This document shows, piece by piece, positions 18,863-32,660 of a stretch of DNA of 64,000 bases. The notes under the pieces were generated by a model, which saw only the letters and a list, made by a program, of their open reading frames with translations, did no database searches and was not told where the DNA came from. Location of the stretch: assembly GCA_022736205.1 (NCBI GenBank), contig DZAT01000002.1:19308-83307 (forward strand). The letters are read 5' to 3'. How positions within the stretch are numbered: the stretch's first letter is position 1; each line of letters starts with the position of its first letter. A program made the translations under genes and the position numbers. Source of the DNA: Thiomicrospira cyclica. GTDB taxonomy: Bacteria > Pseudomonadota > Gammaproteobacteria > Thiomicrospirales > Thiomicrospiraceae.

Positions 18863-18882
18863 GTGCGCGATTAATCGCGCAC
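18863..18882. terminator. Perfect 20-nt palindrome between convergent dsrE-like and rimO genes
   Basis: The sequence is GTGCGCGATTAATCGCGCAC. It includes the last codons and the stop of rimO. It may act as a bidirectional terminator hairpin, but no strong U-tract is present. Confidence 0.4.
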
Positions 18883-20202
18883 CTTAGCAAACAAGTCGTA
18901 GGTATCCGACCCCGTAATATCCACTTCGACAAACTCACCTACTGGCAAGTGCGCACCATTTTTGATGATCACAGTACCATCAATTTCGGGCGCATCGGCA
19001 GCCGAGCGGGCAATCGCACCCTGCTCACCAATGGTATCGACCAACACCGTCATACGCGAGCCGACTTTAGCTTTCATCTTCTCTTCCGAAATATCCATCT
19101 GCAATGCCATCAACTCTTCCCAACGCTCTTGCTTAACGTCATCAGGCACATGAGTGGCTAAATCATTGGCAACCGCACCATCGACGGGTGAGTATGGGAA
19201 ACATCCCACACGATCCAGCTCGGCTTCATCTAAGAAATCCATCAACATTTCGAAGTCTTCGTCCGTTTCACCTGGAAAGCCGACAATAAAGGTGCTACGG
19301 ATGGTGAGTTCTGGACAAATATCGCGCCATTTCTTAATGCGATCCAATAGGCGATTGACATCGCCTGGTCGCTTCATCATTTTTAAGATGCGTGGACTAG
19401 CGTGCTGGAAAGGAATATCTAAATAAGGCAGAATTTTGCCCTGCGCCATCAGCGGAATGATGTCGTCGACATTCGGATAAGGGTAAACATAGTGCATCCG
19501 TGTCCAGATACCCAAATCGCCTAAAGCACTTGCCATATCGTATAGATTGGTTTTGAGCGGACGACCACCCCAGAAATCCAACTTATGTTTTAAGTCGACC
19601 CCGTAGGCGCTGGTGTCTTGCGACACAACCAATAACTCTTTCACGCCAGCGTTCGCCAAATTTTGTGCTTCCGTCATCACATCGCTAATCGAACGAGACA
19701 CCAATTTACCGCGCATGCTGGGGATAATGCAGAAGGTGCAGTTATGGTTACAGCCTTCCGAAATCTTAAGATAGGCGTAGTGTTTCGGTGTTAACTTTAC
19801 GCCCGTGTTAGGCATTAAATCCAAAAACGGTTCGTGCGGTTTGGGAACATATGTATGCACCGCATTCATCACTTCTGTGTAAGCTGCTGCGCCCGAAATG
19901 GCTAATACATTCGGGTGCTCCGCCATAATCACTTCAGGACGCGCACCCAAGCAACCCGTCACAATCACTTTACCGTTTTCGTTCAAGGCTTCACCAATGG
20001 TATCGAGCGACTCGGCAACAGCAGAGTCGATAAAGCCACAGGTGTTCACCACCACCAAATCTGACCCTTTATAATCGGGCGAAATGTCATAACCTTCGCT
20101 ACGCAACTGCGTCAGAATACGTTCAGAGTCCACCAACGCCTTGGGGCAACCGAGGCTAACAAAGCCAATTTTTGGCGCTTGTGTTACGATTTTATTAGTC
20201 AT
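18871..20202 (-). CDS. rimO: Ribosomal protein S12 methylthiotransferase
   Basis: N-terminal MTTase domain ([12 protein letters not shown]), radical-SAM CNHNCTFC and a C-terminal TRAM domain. I place the start at ATG 20202 (MTNKIV...). The track start at 20226 is 8 codons upstream. Confidence 0.9.
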
Positions 20203-20815
20203 GAGATGCGTCCTTAAGCTCGGCAAGTGCCGTAAATGATGAGTTGTCTATTAGCGCCATCGCAGGTGCAATAATCGCTGAAAAATAAGTAGGAAAGTCC
20301 GTAATTGGTTTTGCTAAAGAAACAGACTCACCCAATTCAAACAACCAATAAGCCTCGTCACTGGCTTTTAAGCTACCAGCCTGTTCTACGGTTAGAACAT
20401 GACGCGGCACAAGCTGAACCGAACTAACTGCCCACAAATAGTTAGCACTACGCTCACCCATACCCGTGACGGTCGTACCCAAGGCACAATAACGAATCGA
20501 CTCAATCAGTGCGTCGTCATAACCTTGCAAAGATGTCGCTGGGATGTGATACCAGCATGCTGTACCTTGCTCAAAACGACGATTGTAATCACTATTACGG
20601 TGATTTTTGGGTGCTGCTGACGCGATCAGTACCTTAGCAGGGCGAAATGACAGTTGATTAGCCTTCTTTACGGGTGCTTGTTTACGAACTTGTGTTTTGA
20701 GCCATGCCTTACAATTGCAAGGCTCTGGGGAAATAGGCAGTGCATGACGTTCGGCAATCTGTCTTAACCGTCGTTCAAACTTTAAGCTTTGAGTTTTGGC
20801 TTTTAAAGAATTCAT
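20195..20815 (-). CDS. Hypothetical protein with basic N-terminus (last gene of the aroB-rimO cassette)
   Basis: 206 aa. The first ~80 residues are K/R-rich ([13 protein letters not shown]..., [12 protein letters not shown]). No motif recognised. Its start overlaps the upstream gene stop as ATGA, and its stop overlaps the rimO start by 8 nt. Confidence 0.5.
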
Positions 20816-21414
20816 GATGCATCTCTCTCCAACGTAGATAATGAGACAAAATTGCGCTTAAATTTCTCGTGATTTTGAATGTTTCGCTGAACATCTTGCT
20901 CATCCCAAATTTGAAGTTCCCAAGGAAAGTAAAAGTTGTTTTTGTTTTTAAAATAAATATGCAAACCACGATAGCCTTCTTTCTCACGCAAATACCAGTT
21001 TTTCAGGTTCAACACATCTTGCCAATCATCCAGCATATCCATCACCGATGCTATGTCATCGCGCTTTAGCGTAATGCGTGCACCAAAAATATCATTCAGC
21101 CAGTTGTTGACAGGGTACTGATCGTCACGTTCAGAAAATCGCACGATCTTGTCATCAATACTTTCGCGCGTTTTAACGCGATAAAAATATCTAAGGTCAA
21201 TGTCAGCGATCATCAAGTAATCATTGATGCTTTCGTGCAGCGTTAAACGATAGTGATAAATATGAGAAATCGGTACAGACTTAATCGTTCTGGAAAGGTT
21301 AACTTTCTCTACCTTTCCTGTCTCGAAGTAGTCATTCGAAAAAGCAAAATGCAAGCGATTAATTTCACTCACAAGTTGTTTGACTAAATCAATTTTATTC
21401 ATTGTTAAATGCAT
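20812..21414 (-). CDS. Small RelA/SpoT-type nucleotidyltransferase (small-alarmone-synthetase-like, possible toxSAS)
   Basis: 200 aa. All synthetase-fold motifs occur in order: RVKTRESIDDKIVR, NDIFGARITL, EGYRGLHIYF, WELQIWDEQ, NHEKFKRN. No HD hydrolase, TGS or ACT domains. Confidence 0.65.
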   Translation of the reverse strand: MHLTMNKIDLVKQLVSEINRLHFAFSNDYFETGKVEKVNLSRTIKSVPISHIYHYRLTLHESINDYLMIADIDLRYFYRVKTRESIDDKIVRFSERDDQYPVNNWLNDIFGARITLKRDDIASVMDMLDDWQDVLNLKNWYLREKEGYRGLHIYFKNKNNFYFPWELQIWDEQDVQRNIQNHEKFKRNFVSLSTLERDAS

Positions 21415-21420
21415 ACCCTA

Positions 21421-21927
21421 CTAATAACCAACCAGCAAAATGCCTTTTAACGGCAAATGTAACCTACTTGATATGTAAAGCGTTTCTAAAAAAGAATAAA
21501 CGATCTCAAAGTCTGCATGCCCTCGATAAGTATTTCTTACTGCAATAACCAGATACTCAACCTTGTGCATCATACAAGCCTGAAAAATATCTTTTAGAAA
21601 TTGATTGTTCTCAGTGGCACGACCAGCTTCAATTTCAATAACGATCTTCCCGTCTCGGCTAAGCGCATCAGCATAAAAAGACTTATCAATTTTATTGTTA
21701 TGCCCAAACAATACAGGAACATGTATTTTATCTTTATTACTTTTTCCAGCCTCTACAAGAAAATCAGCACTTTCTAAATTCGATCTTATTGCAGATAACA
21801 CTTCATTGCTTGACAAGTTATTAGCGTCAGAAGAGATGAGATGATTCACCGCATCAAAACATTGCACGATTTGCTCTAGTTCTGTCGACAACCCAATCGA
21901 ACGAGGAAATAGCTGATAATTTATCAT
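21421..21927 (-). CDS. BglII/BamHI-like restriction-endonuclease-fold protein (tentative)
   Basis: 168 aa. Putative catalytic core DALSRDGKIVIEIEAGRATENNQFLKD, followed by YLVIAVRN and the C-terminal LPLKGILLVGY. This resembles the D...E-x-E/Q layout of BamHI/BglII-type enzymes, recalled from memory. Confidence 0.4.
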   Translation of the reverse strand: MINYQLFPRSIGLSTELEQIVQCFDAVNHLISSDANNLSSNEVLSAIRSNLESADFLVEAGKSNKDKIHVPVLFGHNNKIDKSFYADALSRDGKIVIEIEAGRATENNQFLKDIFQACMMHKVEYLVIAVRNTYRGHADFEIVYSFLETLYISSRLHLPLKGILLVGY

Positions 21928-22769
21928 GACTTAAAATGCAGTAATTTAGCTGGAAGAAAATTAGTTGAATGATTGGGATTTCGTATTTCTACGTCAACAA
22001 TAGTAAACGCTTCAGATTGAGCAGATAGAATATTTTTCCTATCACTTTCAGGCAGCGAGTTAAATTTTTCTTTTGTTATCAGGCAGCTTAACTGAAATGA
22101 TTCTGTATTTTCTATTGTGTGAACATCTGAAAAAATATTCGTTGGATTATCGACAATACACTTACTACGAATAGGTATTTTTGTAACGTTTAGGTAATCT
22201 ACGCTACCCAAACAACCGATGTCATCCAATGTCTTACAATCAACCTCGACACCAGAATAAGAACTAGGATCAACAATTTTAATTATACGCTCGTATACTG
22301 TTGCATTAGCAACAAAACAATCACCATAAATCAGCCATAAATGGCGTAGATATTCTTCTTTTTCGATTGTACCAATTGCATAAATTAAATCCTTTTCTTG
22401 CCAGTCTTCGGCGCTTCGACAAAACGAGTTAATTTTGGAACTATTCGCAAGCAACTTTGCCTTCGGATACAAACTATTAAATACAATATTACCATCGATG
22501 CTATCAAGCTCGAACAGTTCAATCGCATCGCCACCTTTTAGCATCATATCAGGCGGATTGTTTTGATTTCCTGTATAACTAAAAACGGATTGATGTTTAG
22601 CTCTCTTTTGGATTCCTTCCAATGTAAAACTATCCGCAAACGAATCTTTAATGAAATCCTCTAACGCAACTCCCATCGCATTCATGCGATTCGCATGATC
22701 AGAATTGTTGATTAAGGCTTGGTCATAATGTTGAACTATTGCTTGAATCGCCGTTAAAAAACTTGCCAT
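21924..22769 (-). CDS. NgoPII-like type II restriction endonuclease homolog (orphan, possibly inactive)
   Basis: 281 aa. The segments NRMNAMGVALEDFIKDSF, VFSYTGNQNNPPDMMLKGGDAIE, FNSLYPKAKL, AEDWQEKDLIYAIG and VEIRNPNH match my recollection of the RE_NgoPII family. Its ATG overlaps the aroB stop as TAATG. Confidence 0.5.
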   Translation of the reverse strand: MASFLTAIQAIVQHYDQALINNSDHANRMNAMGVALEDFIKDSFADSFTLEGIQKRAKHQSVFSYTGNQNNPPDMMLKGGDAIELFELDSIDGNIVFNSLYPKAKLLANSSKINSFCRSAEDWQEKDLIYAIGTIEKEEYLRHLWLIYGDCFVANATVYERIIKIVDPSSYSGVEVDCKTLDDIGCLGSVDYLNVTKIPIRSKCIVDNPTNIFSDVHTIENTESFQLSCLITKEKFNSLPESDRKNILSAQSEAFTIVDVEIRNPNHSTNFLPAKLLHFKS

Positions 22770-23881
22770 TACCCTACCTCACCCCGATAGGCATGCCACT
22801 CAACCAATGTTCTATCTAGTAGGCTGGCATCGTAATCGCCCGTCATATAGGCTTTACCGATTGATTGCAGCAGCACCAAACGAATATGCCCTGCATCTGC
22901 CTTCTTATCCACAGCCATCATATCTAAAAACTGTGCAGGCTTAATTTGGGGTGGCGGATATAACGGCAAACGCGCACGACTGACGATATCTGCCATGCGG
23001 TCTAAGTCGACCTCACTGATATTGCCCATGATTTTGCTCATGTAGCCCGCCATCATCATCCCAGCACCGACAGCCTCGCCATGCAACCATTCGCCATATC
23101 CCATACCAGTTTCGATGGCATGACCAAAGGTGTGTCCCAAATTGAGTAAGGCACGCACATCGGCTTCTTTTTCATCGGCGGCAACAATATCGGCTTTATC
23201 TTGGCACGAACGCGCAATGGCATAAGCCAAGGCTGCAGGTTCGCGTGCAAGCAATGCATCCATATTGACTTCTAACCAGTCAAAGAAAGGAGCATCGCAC
23301 AGCAAGCCATATTTAATGATTTCTGCCACACCTGCCGACAGTTCACGATCGGGCAAGGTATTGAGCGTGAGCGTATCAATCAGCACCACTTTCGGCTGAT
23401 GAAAAGCGCCAATCATGTTTTTACCCAGTTCGTGATTAACCCCAGTCTTACCCCCAACAGACGAATCGACTTGCGATAACAAAGTGGTTGGAATTTGGAT
23501 AAAATCAACGCCACGCTGATAAATAGACGCAGCAAAACCAACCATATCACCAATCACACCACCACCGAGCGCGACCAGCATGCACTTACGATCAAAACGC
23601 GCCTCGAGCAGGGCAGTAAAAATTTTATTCAACTCGCTCAGCGTTTTGTATTCTTCGCCGTCATCCAAAATACAGGTAGCGACTCTTTTACCTGTGCCTT
23701 CAAAGAGCGCAATGGCTTGTGCCATATACAAAGGCGCAACCGTGGTATTAGAAACAATCATCACTTGCTTGGCTGGCACGTGCGGCAACACTAACGCTGG
23801 CTGATTCAATAATCCTTCGCCAATATGAATCGGGTAAGAACGCTCGCCCAAGGCGACGGTTAAGGTTTGCATATCAGACAT
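22769..23881 (-). CDS. aroB: 3-dehydroquinate synthase
   Basis: 370 aa with the motifs [27 protein letters not shown] and HGEAVGAGM. Confidence 0.93.
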
Positions 23882-29969: not shown

Positions 29970-30255
29970 TATTTTAACAATCCTTATACTATTATTATTG
30001 TCCATGACACCTAGCACAAAACGCACAAAAAAGCGTGCCCTGCTAATGGACTTAAAACATGATGTTACATCATTATTGATTTGAGTATAGCCCAAACGAA
30101 AACACAAATCTAGCACAGCTAATGGGTGAATAAGCATTCATTTTGTAAAGACAGCAATACCCGCACAGAGAACCCAACACAACCACCAAAACTTACTGGT
30201 TTTGGTTCGGTTATTACGTTATAATATAAGGTCATACTGTTTAAATGAGGTTTAT

Positions 30256-30480
30256 ATGGCACGCGTCACCGTAGAAGATTGCCTAGATCAGGTAGAAAAT
30301 CGTTTTGAATTGGTGCTGGTTGGTGCTAAACGCGCTCGTCAATTATCACGTGGTGCTTCTGCAACCATAGAATGGGAACAAGACAAGCCGACGGTTGTCG
30401 CCCTACGCGAACTGGCTGCACACAAAATCACGCCTAAAACGATTTTGGCTGACGAAGAAACACCTCCCTACTTTTATTAA
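30256..30480 (+). CDS. rpoZ: RNA polymerase omega subunit
   Basis: ATG 30256 follows a GAGG SD and gives [30 protein letters not shown], the canonical RpoZ N-terminus. Confidence 0.92.
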
Positions 30481-30494
30481 GAGCGCACTGGCAG

Positions 30495-32660
30495 ATGGAC
30501 AAAGACTGCGGTGTTGCGCCGTCAAACCAACAAGACTGTCTGCCAGACCCGCTTTGTCTGCAAAGGCTGCTTCAGAAAGCCTGCTACCTTAAAACCGATC
30601 AGCAAGATCGGCTACGTTCTGCATTTTGGTTCGGTGCACAGGCACACCAAGGGCAAATGCGTAAAAGTGGCGAACCTTATATTACCCACCCCCTCGCTGT
30701 TGCTGGCATTTTAGCTGACATTCATTTAGATGTTGATAGCTTAACGGCTGCTATTTTGCACGATGTGGTCGAAGATACCGTCATCAATCGCGGCGATGTT
30801 GCGGTTCACTTTGGCGAAGATGTTGCTAATCTTGTCGAAGGGGTTACTAAACTGGGTAAACTCGAGTTTTCTAATCCTCAAGAAGCACAAGCCGAAAACT
30901 TCCGTAAAATGCTGATGGCAATGGCGCGCGATTTACGTGTCATTCTCATTAAACTGGCTGACCGCTTACATAACATGCGCACCATCGGTAGCATGCGTCC
31001 TGATAAACGCCGACGCATCGCACGTGAAACACTCGACATCTATGCCCCTATTGCCGCTCGCCTAGGTATTAATGCTTGGCGAATGGAGTTGGAAGATTTG
31101 TGTTTTACCGCCAAGTTTCCCATTCGTGCACGTGTTCTTGCCGACGGTGTGCGTAAAGCACGCGGCAACCGCAAAGAGTTGGTGGAACAAATCACCGATG
31201 CTATCGCTCATCGATTGATGCAAGAAGGTCTTGTCTGTGACGTTAAAGGACGCGAAAAACACCTGTTTAGTTTATATAAAAAAATGAAGCAAAAGCGATT
31301 GCATTTCAATGAAGTGATGGATATTTACGCTTTTCGCATCATTGTTGATAATGCCGATGCCTGTTATCGCACCTTAGGCATGATTCATTCGTTGTATAAA
31401 CCCGTACCAGGTAAGTTTAAAGATTATATCGCCATCCCTAAACCCAATGGCTACCAATCGTTACACACCGTGTTATTTGCGACACAAGGCGTGCATATCG
31501 AAGTGCAAATTCGCTCTAACGATATGCATACACTTGCCGAACATGGTGTTGCAGCGCATTGGTCTTATAAGCTCAATGGTTCTTCTCGTGTTGCAGCAGC
31601 CGACCAACGCGCACAAGAATGGGTTAAGCATTTGCTCGAAATGCAACAGAGCGCGGGCAACTCACTCGACTTTTTAGAAACGGTTAAAATCGACTTATTC
31701 CCTGATAGCTTATATGTATTTACACCCGATGGCGATATCAAAACCTTACCGCGAGGCGCAACTGTTGTCGATTTTGCCTACGCAGTACACACCAAACTAG
31801 GGCACACCTGTATTGGGGCGCGTGTCAACAGAATGCCTGTACCGCTCAAAACCCAACTACAAAATGGTCAAACCGTTGAAATTGTTCGTGGTAGTGCGCC
31901 CGCTCCCAACCCCAACTGGCTTGACTTTGTCACCACTGCAAAAGCGCGCAGCCAAATTCGCCACTATCTTAAAAACCAACACAGTGAGCATGCCATCGCT
32001 CTAGGCGATCGACTGCTTAAAAAAGCACTGCACGCTTTGGGCATACCCAGCACGCCCATTCCGACGAAGCAACAACAACATTTATTGCTCGAACTTAAAG
32101 CAGCCGACTGGAGCGAGCTGTTAATGACCATTGGTTTAGGAAATCGCTTACCCGCACTGGTTGCCAAACAAATCGCCGACGGCTTAAATGAAAGCAACCC
32201 CATACCGACCTTGTCACAACCATTGCACATATCGGGTACTGAAGGTTTAGCATTAAGTTACGCGCACTGTTGTCACCCCATTCCAGGCGACTCCATTATG
32301 GGGTTTATTAGCAGTGAACGGGGGTTGGTCATTCATCGTACCAGCTGTCCAAACCTACTCAACTTCCGTAAGCACCCCGAAAAGTGGCTCGATGTACAGT
32401 GGGAGGAAGGCATTAATAGCGAGCTCCCCGTGGCGATTACAATTGAAACGCACAATAAGCGTGGTGTGCTCGCAATGGTTGCCAATACCATTGCAACGGA
32501 AGGGTCAAACATTGAAAGTGTCGATAATGCCGATAAAGACAACCATCACAGCGTCATGCATTTTACCATTACCGTACGCGATCTTGATCATATACACAGT
32601 GTGTTGCGTCGTTTGCGCAATATGCCAGACGTGCTCAGTGCTGAACGAGATGCAAGCTAA
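30495..32660 (+). CDS. spoT: Bifunctional (p)ppGpp synthetase/hydrolase
   Basis: 721 aa. HD hydrolase domain (ITHPLAVAGILADIHLD...HDVVEDT), RelA/SpoT synthetase domain, TGS and C-terminal ACT-like domains. It follows rpoZ as in the gmk-rpoZ-spoT arrangement. The exact start is uncertain. Confidence 0.9.
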   Translation: MDKDCGVAPSNQQDCLPDPLCLQRLLQKACYLKTDQQDRLRSAFWFGAQAHQGQMRKSGEPYITHPLAVAGILADIHLDVDSLTAAILHDVVEDTVINRGDVAVHFGEDVANLVEGVTKLGKLEFSNPQEAQAENFRKMLMAMARDLRVILIKLADRLHNMRTIGSMRPDKRRRIARETLDIYAPIAARLGINAWRMELEDLCFTAKFPIRARVLADGVRKARGNRKELVEQITDAIAHRLMQEGLVCDVKGREKHLFSLYKKMKQKRLHFNEVMDIYAFRIIVDNADACYRTLGMIHSLYKPVPGKFKDYIAIPKPNGYQSLHTVLFATQGVHIEVQIRSNDMHTLAEHGVAAHWSYKLNGSSRVAAADQRAQEWVKHLLEMQQSAGNSLDFLETVKIDLFPDSLYVFTPDGDIKTLPRGATVVDFAYAVHTKLGHTCIGARVNRMPVPLKTQLQNGQTVEIVRGSAPAPNPNWLDFVTTAKARSQIRHYLKNQHSEHAIALGDRLLKKALHALGIPSTPIPTKQQQHLLLELKAADWSELLMTIGLGNRLPALVAKQIADGLNESNPIPTLSQPLHISGTEGLALSYAHCCHPIPGDSIMGFISSERGLVIHRTSCPNLLNFRKHPEKWLDVQWEEGINSELPVAITIETHNKRGVLAMVANTIATEGSNIESVDNADKDNHHSVMHFTITVRDLDHIHSVLRRLRNMPDVLSAERDAS

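Follow-up and report, generated by a model that had tools for sequence, protein, structure and literature searches.

A GGCC restriction remnant without its methylase behind aroB of Thiomicrospira cyclica: a probable composite with a BamHI-like predicted nuclease and an independent small RelA/SpoT-type gene

How can a cell keep a full-length restriction endonuclease (REase) gene without a methylase, and do the genes packed around it form one system? Both questions are raised by a locus of Thiomicrospira cyclica in contig DZAT01000002.1, of which we analysed a stretch of 64,000 nucleotides (the window). Four minus-strand open reading frames (ORFs) of 281, 168, 200 and 206 amino acids (aa), here called genes 1 to 4, fill the interval between aroB and rimO, and strong homologues of each ORF mark all four as real genes. 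The original prediction had the four ORFs, their coordinates and their junctions right. It took them for one AT-rich cassette, which could be a single anti-phage module of sensor, signal and effector, or a composite of a decayed restriction–modification (R-M) system and a toxSAS toxin–antitoxin (TA) pair. Our comparisons make it likely that the locus is a composite, made up of the remnant of a decayed R-M system and an independent gene 3. Gene 4 belongs to the host operon.

The foreign, AT-rich insert spans positions 20812..22769 (-) and lies exactly between the stop codon of aroB and the start codon of gene 4. Gene 1 occupies 21924..22769 (-), gene 2 (hereafter G2) 21421..21927 (-) and gene 3 20812..21414 (-); gene 4, at 20195..20815 (-), is outside the insert. 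GC contents of 35.5%, 36.1% and 37.3% in genes 1 to 3 set them apart from the neighbouring genes (45–50%) and from the window as a whole (45.9%), as had been judged by eye. Gene 4, at a near-host 45.2%, falls out of the proposed four-gene cassette on this count as well as by its position in relatives. The junctions are tight: TAATG between aroB and gene 1, ATGA between genes 1 and 2 and again between genes 3 and 4, and a gap of 6 nucleotides (nt) between genes 2 and 3, or of 18 nt if gene 3 begins at its likely start Met5 (21402), as its homologues do. Co-transcription of the insert genes with aroKB, which had been called unavoidable, is plausible and no more than that; promoter-like sites (8, against 11.8 ± 3.8 in shuffled sequence) and terminator-like sites (8, against 5.9 ± 2.6) are not in excess. 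The arrangement of genes 1 to 3 is repeated in three further contigs of the same organism (L001–L003).

Gene 1 encodes a full-length homologue of the NgoPII family of REases, which recognise GGCC. As originally called, it matches the Pfam family RE_NgoPII, at 6.9e-80, with residues 4–262 aligned to profile positions 3–261 of 262; PADLOC assigns it to REase_II at 2.6e-75. The catalytic motif of the family, PPD...[DS][AV]I[ED]-[VI]-K-K, is the classical PD...(D/E)xK, and all 12 other NgoPII-family proteins compared, including the characterised gonococcal NgoPII and MthTI, have E-[VI]-K-K. At codons 84–87 of gene 1 (22509..22520, (-)) this becomes E-L-F-E, with the substitutions K86F and K87E. 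The identical change occurs in the independent contigs L001–L003. In PD-(D/E)xK nucleases, loss of the motif lysine abolishes catalysis. Gene 1 is therefore most likely dead as an enzyme, its catalytic lysine having been lost through K86F.

The absence of a methylase, stated from motifs alone in the original prediction, held up in every search of the 64 kb. We found none by tblastn with ten C5-methyltransferases or fragments plus HsdM, none by six-frame scans for FxGxG, PCQ, ENV and (D/N/S)PP(Y/F/W), and none by PADLOC on all 62 window ORFs of at least 90 aa. The cell would tolerate gene 1 without a methylase because a dead gene 1 product cannot cut unmethylated GGCC. One active-site substitution, together with the allele series described below, thus resolves the apparent paradox of an REase without a methylase.

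The composition of the window bears on past restriction. GGCC is five-fold depleted, with 37 sites observed and 182 expected (ratio 0.20), and CCGG ten-fold, with 9 observed and 90 expected (ratio 0.10); GCGC, GTAC and TCGA stand at expectation. The products of 5-methylcytosine deamination, GGTC, GACC, CTGG and CCAG, show no enrichment in the window, and the depletion of GGCC therefore indicates that the lineage was under pressure from GGCC restriction in the past. The two depletions together suggest long-standing avoidance of GGCC and CCGG restriction, with no CCGG system visible in the window. Real restriction pressure of this kind would also suit an alternative in which gene 1 is an active orphan REase with its GGCC methylase encoded elsewhere, and G2 is its accessory, either a Vsr-like T:G repair nickase or a second REase sharing the same methylase. 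Gene 1 is indeed full length and well conserved outside its active site. The replacement of the catalytic lysine by phenylalanine, in gene 1 only, argues against this alternative, as do the unenriched GGTC and GACC, which show that the depletion was not driven by deamination.

The canonical loci of MthTI and gonococcal NgoPII consist of R and then M, without G2. Other states occur: in the gonococcal strain of NZ_CP119140.1 (L136, L137), R.NgoPII is split by a frameshift near codon 125–130 and M.NgoPII is intact. PLSDB lists both of these Neisseria gonorrhoeae records, of ~2.17 Mb, as plasmids, but they are evidently chromosomes.

A comparison of the aroB–rimO junction in relatives, an obvious check on any account of this locus, revealed that the interval from aroB to gene 4 exists in three states: with no insert in L013–L015, with R'-G2-M' in L128–L131 and with R-G2-gene 3 in the window. 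Gene 4 directly follows aroB in the relatives without an insert, in the order gmk / aroK-aroB-gene 4, both in L013–L015 and in the only 50%-identical L141–L143; the insert consequently comprises genes 1 to 3 only. In the sister allele of L128–L131, R.NgoPII is shortened to 83 aa by an in-frame internal deletion, G2 is intact (95% aa and 92% nt identity to the G2 of the window), and the methylase survives as an 80-aa stub with motifs IX–X only. Gene 3 occupies the slot of this stub in the window, and the aroB/R junction sequence is common to the window and L128. A methylase stub at the same site of a sister allele means that gene 3 is a late replacement. The allele series catches the decay of an R-M system in progress.

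From these alleles we propose that a promoterless NgoPII-type GGCC R-M unit, already colonised by G2 and hence of the form R-G2-M, would have inserted exactly where the stop codon of aroB meets the start of the native gene 4. Lacking a promoter and placed behind aroB, it would probably have been expressed by read-through from the aroKB operon. In a second step it would have decayed, the methylase being lost entirely and the REase remaining full length without its catalytic lysine. The aligned alleles show these two steps, at the level of sequence.

The insertion site has a history of its own. Compared with L013–L015, aroB is 97.9% identical in nucleotides up to its stop codon, and identity then drops to ~72% in gene 4 (break at 22767 / 20805). 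Downstream synteny differs as well, with a CheW/CheA/GGDEF cluster in L013 and L128 and rimO-ygiQ in the window. The drop in identity and the differing synteny together mark the aroB stop as a recombination breakpoint. An endpoint of recombination or rearrangement thus coincides with the cassette site. We also considered a transposon or an integron cassette as the vehicle and rejected both: a repeat scan found no terminal or border repeats of the insert, and there is no transposase or integrase gene in or beside it. An Rfam scan returned no RNA element.

Gene 3 probably arrived separately. We surveyed the neighbourhoods of gene 3 homologues at 31 independent genome loci, plus Halomonas loci, and those of G2 at 83 independent loci. 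Genes 1 and 2 adjoin gene 3 at none of the former 31, and gene 3 is present at none of the latter 83, so that the block expected of a mobile module does not recur in the sampled loci. A single anti-phage module of genes 1–3 or 1–4, in which the dead REase or G2 senses, gene 3 signals or modifies tRNA and another component executes, would account well for the tight packing and overlapping junctions, for the origin of genes 1 to 3 in defence-associated families and for the repeated arrangement in three further contigs. The well-preserved dead REase could even serve as its GGCC-binding sensor. We nevertheless regard such a module as very unlikely: its two parts never meet in 31 + 83 independent loci, gene 4 is native, the sister allele has a methylase stub at the place of gene 3, and tight junctions are typical of gene 3 and of the R-G2 cassette in every host operon. 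The composite of an R-M remnant and an independent gene 3 leaves the nature of the two remaining genes to be explained.

G2 has no Pfam match at E ≤ 1 and no NCBIfam family; NCBIfam was uninformative for all four proteins. The AlphaFold (AF2) model of its 168 residues has a predicted local distance difference test score (pLDDT) of 87.6 and a predicted template-modelling (TM) score, pTM, of 0.86. The best Foldseek matches among solved structures are BglII (E 4.5e-3, probability 0.99), OkrAI and BamHI; the three together span probabilities of 0.92–0.99, TM scores of 0.51–0.57 (0.53–0.57 for OkrAI and BamHI) and sequence identities of 9–11%. The original assignment to a BglII/BamHI-like core therefore stands for the fold and fails for the sequence, which no Pfam family matches. 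D87, E98 and E100 are invariant in 29 sequences, and K112 and D113 are also invariant in the family; the predicted active-site residues D87, E98, E100 and K112 are all intact. A PADLOC match of G2 to OloA is spurious. Two G2 homologues bear the precomputed label PF26497, although a Pfam scan of one homologue, P0040, gave no PF26497 match.

The G2 family is large and unusually uniform, with 3,475 clusters at 90% identity, 715 at 50%, and ~70% identity across phyla. The window G2 is 65–71% identical to the G2 of loci whose REases share only 30–40%. Between the window and L128, the ratio of non-synonymous to synonymous substitution rates (dN/dS) is 0.064 for G2, and its synonymous divergence (dS) is 0.36, as against 1.2 for aroB, 1.5 for the N-terminus of gene 1 and 1.8 for gene 4. 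The low dN/dS and low dS imply that G2 is under purifying selection and has been exchanged more recently than its surroundings. In viral contigs and the phage collection we found no G2, and there was one plasmid match.

Across the 83 loci, G2 is found in two recurrent arrangements. Arrangement A is [HTH]-M5C-77-aa ORF-G2-R.HaeIII, where HTH is a helix-turn-helix protein and M5C a C5-methylase; arrangement B, which the window matches, is R.NgoPII-G2-M5C. R.NgoPII-G2 followed by a truncated M recurs in nine metagenome loci, directly behind gltX, ptsI, an amidase gene or an iron-containing alcohol dehydrogenase gene. An M.NgoPII-like sequence lies within 1 kb of G2 at 45 of the 83 loci. Seven of them run into a contig end and were set aside; at 35 of the 38 that could be judged, the adjacent methylase is truncated by something other than a contig end. 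Stubs upstream of G2 keep the N-terminus and stubs downstream the C-terminus, all in the orientation of G2, and at one locus the two methylase halves flank the 77-aa ORF and G2. Neither G2 nor the 77-aa ORF resembles motifs IX–X, and the idea that G2 is the missing part of a split methylase was dropped. G2 also occurs alone. In L128 both R and M are destroyed around it, and a 35%-identical relative stands by itself among housekeeping genes (L144–L146).

The truncated methylases invite a further alternative, in which G2 is a methylation-dependent, type IV-like nuclease acting on GG(m5C)C, whose arrival selects for loss first of the GGCC methylase and then of the REase. Truncation at 35 of 38 loci and the survival of G2 without any methylase would both follow, and the notion that methyl-specific nucleases come into conflict with methylases is well established (PMC2993543). 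Such a nuclease leaves the location of G2 inside or next to the methylase gene unexplained, however, and several loci (L123–L125) have an intact second C5-methylase only 0.3–1.3 kb from G2. Its best structural matches are ordinary type IIP enzymes, with poor scores for MspJI and PvuRts1I. We consider this alternative distinctly improbable.

The same neighbourhoods bear on the accessory role that G2 would have beside an active orphan REase. G2 is physically tied to GGCC methylase genes, and the MthTI plasmid has a T/G-mismatch glycosylase beside its GGCC system. On the other side, G2 shows no likeness to Vsr, either as a Pfam match or in the top 50 Foldseek matches; it has lasted, under purifying selection, beside ruined R and M genes, and also on its own in a housekeeping neighbourhood; and the methylases that adjoin it are mostly broken. 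Together with the lost lysine of gene 1, this makes an active orphan REase with an accessory G2 improbable. We also considered G2 as a conventional REase with a six-base site containing GGCC. Of such sites, TGGCCA, CGGCCG and AGGCCT are all present in the window and GGGCCC alone is missing, with counts too small to decide.

The G2 loci are better fitted by a nuclease of homing type, selfish and colonising the genes of GGCC methylases, a possibility that we take seriously though we would stop short of calling it probable. On the composite account, G2 would be the one part of the invading R-M unit kept under strong purifying selection, and we infer that it was retained as a selfish nuclease, homing or in some other way independent of the methylase, with GGCC methylase genes as its target or vehicle.

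Small ORFs of recurrent families accompany G2. ORFs of 77–90 aa (clusters m77 and c2, with the motif ...Y.S.EA..IDE.IFYF...) lie immediately before G2 in most arrangement-A loci, among them L005 (7771–8004), L007 (5771–6004) and about 75 other G2 loci; the window has none. Two others are c5 (98 aa, downstream) and c7 (67 aa, upstream). These small proteins may be partners or inhibitors of G2. The complete unit HTH-M5C-77-aa ORF-G2-R.HaeIII is found in two cultured isolates of different phyla, Galbibacter sp. BG1 (L005, CP058364, 6669–9546) and Cyclonatronum proteinivorum (L007, CP027806, 4654–7546), as well as in two metagenomes (L088, L108). Its M5C of 263–266 aa ends before motifs IX–X and is thus apparently truncated, and yet it coexists with a full-length HaeIII-family REase.

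Gene 3 belongs to a different world. Its 200-aa product passes the Pfam cutoff for RelA_SpoT (28.8 bits against 27), and the five synthetase motifs that supported the original call, RVKTRESIDDK, DIFGARI, GYRGLH, ELQIW and HEKFKR, are all present, at residues 79, 108, 147, 166 and 182, with no variation across the family. A profile of this RelA/SpoT-homologue (RSH) family matches the solved structures of RelP/YwaC at 4e-5 and of the toxSAS enzyme FaRel2 at 7e-5. Foldseek ranks FaRel2 first for the model of gene 3 (E 3.2e-5), followed by RelQ. The family counts more than 835 homologues, mostly of 186 aa and ~80% identical across Proteobacteria, Cyanobacteria and Bacteroidota. Their C-termini read ...KFKRNF[IVLM], and the window protein continues with a read-through extension of ~11 residues, which explains its ATGA overlap with gene 4. 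No extra or fused antitoxin domain was seen, an architecture shared with FaRel2, and no partner gene recurs across the 31 loci.

What recurs is the company of type I R-M systems. At 11 or more of the 31 loci, and at the Halomonas loci, the gene 3 homologue is co-directional within a type I R-M operon, typically as hsdS-X-hsdR, and often with an 8-nt overlap between its start and the stop of hsdS. Within two genes of it, the Pfam families encountered most frequently are Methylase_S, ResIII, HSDR_N, T1R_D3 and EcoR124_C, followed by YoeB/Phd, AbiEii-like AAA_21, Fic and YhcG. Plasmids of Streptococcus and Bacillus carry further homologues, with RelBE, LPD11, Fic and conjugation genes alongside, and the gonococcal chromosome NZ_CP119140.1 (L137) has one of 58.6% identity in an unannotated context. 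Twenty-eight phage records, including phage satellites, contain the gene; in Streptococcus prophages the order is cI, gene 3, int, and gene 3 starts 2 nt after the cI-like repressor. A homologue in the T. cyclica metagenome-assembled genome SulCav_PC08 (L020, 8001–9829) adjoins a 402-aa C5-methylase on the opposite strand, a further link of this RSH family to DNA-modification genes, outside type I systems.

The family thus sits where PrrC, Ronin and the prophage gene CapRel sit, and for that reason we favour abortive infection among its roles. That gene 3 is a latent abortive-infection effector, or guardian of R-M, is a fair possibility, which we put forward tentatively. As the last step of the composite, the slot of the methylase stub would have been taken by gene 3, from a separate and highly mobile RSH family. 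The enzyme would most likely be latent and growth-arresting, acting by pyrophosphorylation of tRNA 3' ends, like FaRel2, or through an alarmone, and it would be unleashed once a phage disables restriction, as in the guardian model of PrrC and Ronin.

PADLOC also gave gene 3 a weak match to its model PDC-S33. The match is stronger, at 8.4e-14, for a second window ORF at 30202–32657 (721 aa). By its length and by synteny with L128, where rpoZ is followed by a 721-aa HD/RelA_SpoT/TGS/ACT protein, this ORF probably encodes the long RSH of housekeeping type (SpoT/Rel), in which case PDC-S33 recognises RSH domains generally. We found no mention of PDC-S33 in the searched literature.

Gene 4 bears on whether gene 3 has an antitoxin next door. 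In this clade the aroKB operon ancestrally includes gene 4, which stands where the aroK-aroB-damX-dam operon of E. coli has damX. A lineage-specific protein of this type, of 203–207 aa and without a Pfam family, always follows aroB in the clade (L013–L015, L128, L141–L143). The protein is basic, as first described (isoelectric point (pI) 9.2), owing to an N-terminal 80 aa of pI 11.3; the C-terminal part is acidic, with a pI of 4.5. Upstream lies the native aroB, encoding 3-dehydroquinate synthase, at 22769..23881 (-), identified from its ORF and from DHQ_synthase Pfam matches of orthologues; its stop codon bounds the insert upstream. Downstream lies the native rimO, at 18871..20202 (-), whose start codon (ATG at 20202) and the stop of gene 4 form an 8-nt overlap (ATGACTAA); in L001 rimO is a 443-aa gene with UPF0004, Radical_SAM and TRAM_2 domains.

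A toxSAS TA pair of genes 3 and 4 would draw on their ATGA overlap and on the TA toxin FaRel2, the nearest solved relative of gene 3. This pairing is extremely unlikely. In all relatives examined, the gene 4 homologue follows aroB with no gene 3 present, which means that gene 4 is not the antitoxin of gene 3; gene 3 homologues have no gene 4-like neighbour in the 31 loci; homologues number just 51 for gene 4, every one of them in Thiotrichales or other Gammaproteobacteria, and more than 835 for gene 3; and the overlap itself stems from the 11-residue extension that the gene 3 family lacks. Of the composite first envisaged, the decayed R-M part is therefore sustained by the missing methylase, the lost lysine and the more decayed sister allele, and the RelA/SpoT part by the likeness of gene 3 to FaRel2. 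The TA pair is not, with gene 4 no antitoxin and gene 3 without a conserved partner.

Several findings weigh against the account given here. The loci sampled, 31 for gene 3 and 83 for G2, are drawn from hundreds to thousands. The ORF of gene 1 is unbroken and agrees with the family at 30 of 36 near-invariant columns, and gene 1 may have a selected role without catalysis, such as GGCC binding, or may tolerate K86F. Structural matches are modest both for G2 (TM about 0.5) and for gene 3 (TM 0.43, on a model of pLDDT 72.7). The truncation points of the methylases vary, unlike those of precise homing. Several other REases of arrangement B keep E-x-K-K, yet the methylase that comes after G2 is truncated and lacks motifs I and IV; such R.NgoPII homologues occur in L048, L053, L068, L084, L091, L096 and L101. 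Simple decay leaves the survival of these cells unexplained, which implies a second GGCC methylase elsewhere or protection linked to G2. As for gene 3, neither an antitoxin nor an autoinhibitory domain is visible and its pI of 6.3 is close to neutral; on these grounds it may be a non-toxic alarmone synthetase instead of a toxin. Since it stands in the window beside a dead type II enzyme and not a type I complex, a guardian role of the kind proposed cannot operate here.

The interest of the locus lies with the G2 and gene 3 families. Both are large, and in the searchable literature we found no description of either an R-M-embedded or prophage-borne small RSH or a nuclease inside GGCC systems. 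The association of G2 with broken GGCC methylase genes suggests that selfish elements are in a conflict not yet described, and the gene 3 family, sited like R-M guardians and prophage defence genes, is a candidate for a new abortive-infection effector. More speculatively, G2, with or without its 77-aa partner, could be a selfish element parasitic on R-M systems and the gene 3 family a PrrC-analogue effector guarding them, both having accumulated in the window; we consider this combination rather unlikely. If it were true, G2 would break the R-M system that it invades and outlive it, and gene 3 would guard restriction through tRNA pyrophosphorylation or alarmone synthesis.

How does the locus compare with known systems? 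Like the GGCC systems of NgoPII, MthTI and FnuDI, it has a full-length RE_NgoPII member in the order and orientation of a canonical R-then-M unit. It differs in having no methylase in the window, E-L-F in place of E-x-K, G2 at the point where R and M would meet, and a position inside a housekeeping operon. G2 shares with BglII, BamHI and OkrAI its fold and is about as small (OkrAI has 194 aa); its invariant D87, E98 and E100 may be the counterparts of D94, E111 and E113, the D...E-x-E acidic triad of BamHI. Unlike these enzymes it has no detectable sequence similarity to the group and no intact cognate methylase. REases normally diverge fast, whereas G2 keeps its ~70% identity across phyla.

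Homing endonuclease genes are known in free-standing form, for example those of the seg/mob type in phage T4. G2 resembles them in being small, in lying in or next to one target gene family, in having been exchanged, in the one genome pair compared, independently of its flanks and more recently than they were, in being more conserved than those flanks and in persisting while host genes decay. It differs in its PD-(D/E)xK, BamHI-like type, which is not GIY-YIG, HNH or LAGLIDADG, and in its varying insertion points; that it cleaves an intact GGCC methylase allele is putative.

FaRel2 (PMC11782079) and CapRel (PMC9712102), the latter a prophage defence gene, are RelA/SpoT-homologue toxins of the toxSAS type. 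Gene 3 has the full synthetase motif set, about the size of FaRel2 (206 aa) and FaRel2 as its top solved match, and its family shares with CapRel a presence on prophages and other mobile elements. The relationship is remote (19% identity, E about 1e-5), gene 3 has no adjacent or fused antitoxin and a pI near neutral, and its family is typically at home in type I R-M operons. In that respect it recalls PrrC and Ronin (RonA), guardians embedded in R-M systems (PMC12707154; 10.1101/2023.04.06.535777). The gene 3 family is co-directional in type I operons and lies mostly in the hsdS-hsdR interval, exactly the place of prrC; it encodes an RSH nucleotidyltransferase, however, and not an anticodon nuclease or a membrane peptide, and gene 3 of the window adjoins a dead type II enzyme outside any type I operon.

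Lastly, R-M units are known to insert into operon-like gene clusters, and partial R and M genes occur (Furuta, Abe and Kobayashi 2010; PMC2853133, PMC2993543). The locus is on this account a variant of known phenomena: a type II unit stands precisely between two genes of a housekeeping operon, with partial R and M genes present among its alleles. Its own features are junctions in the window that coincide with stop and start codons, and the extra passenger genes that the unit carries.

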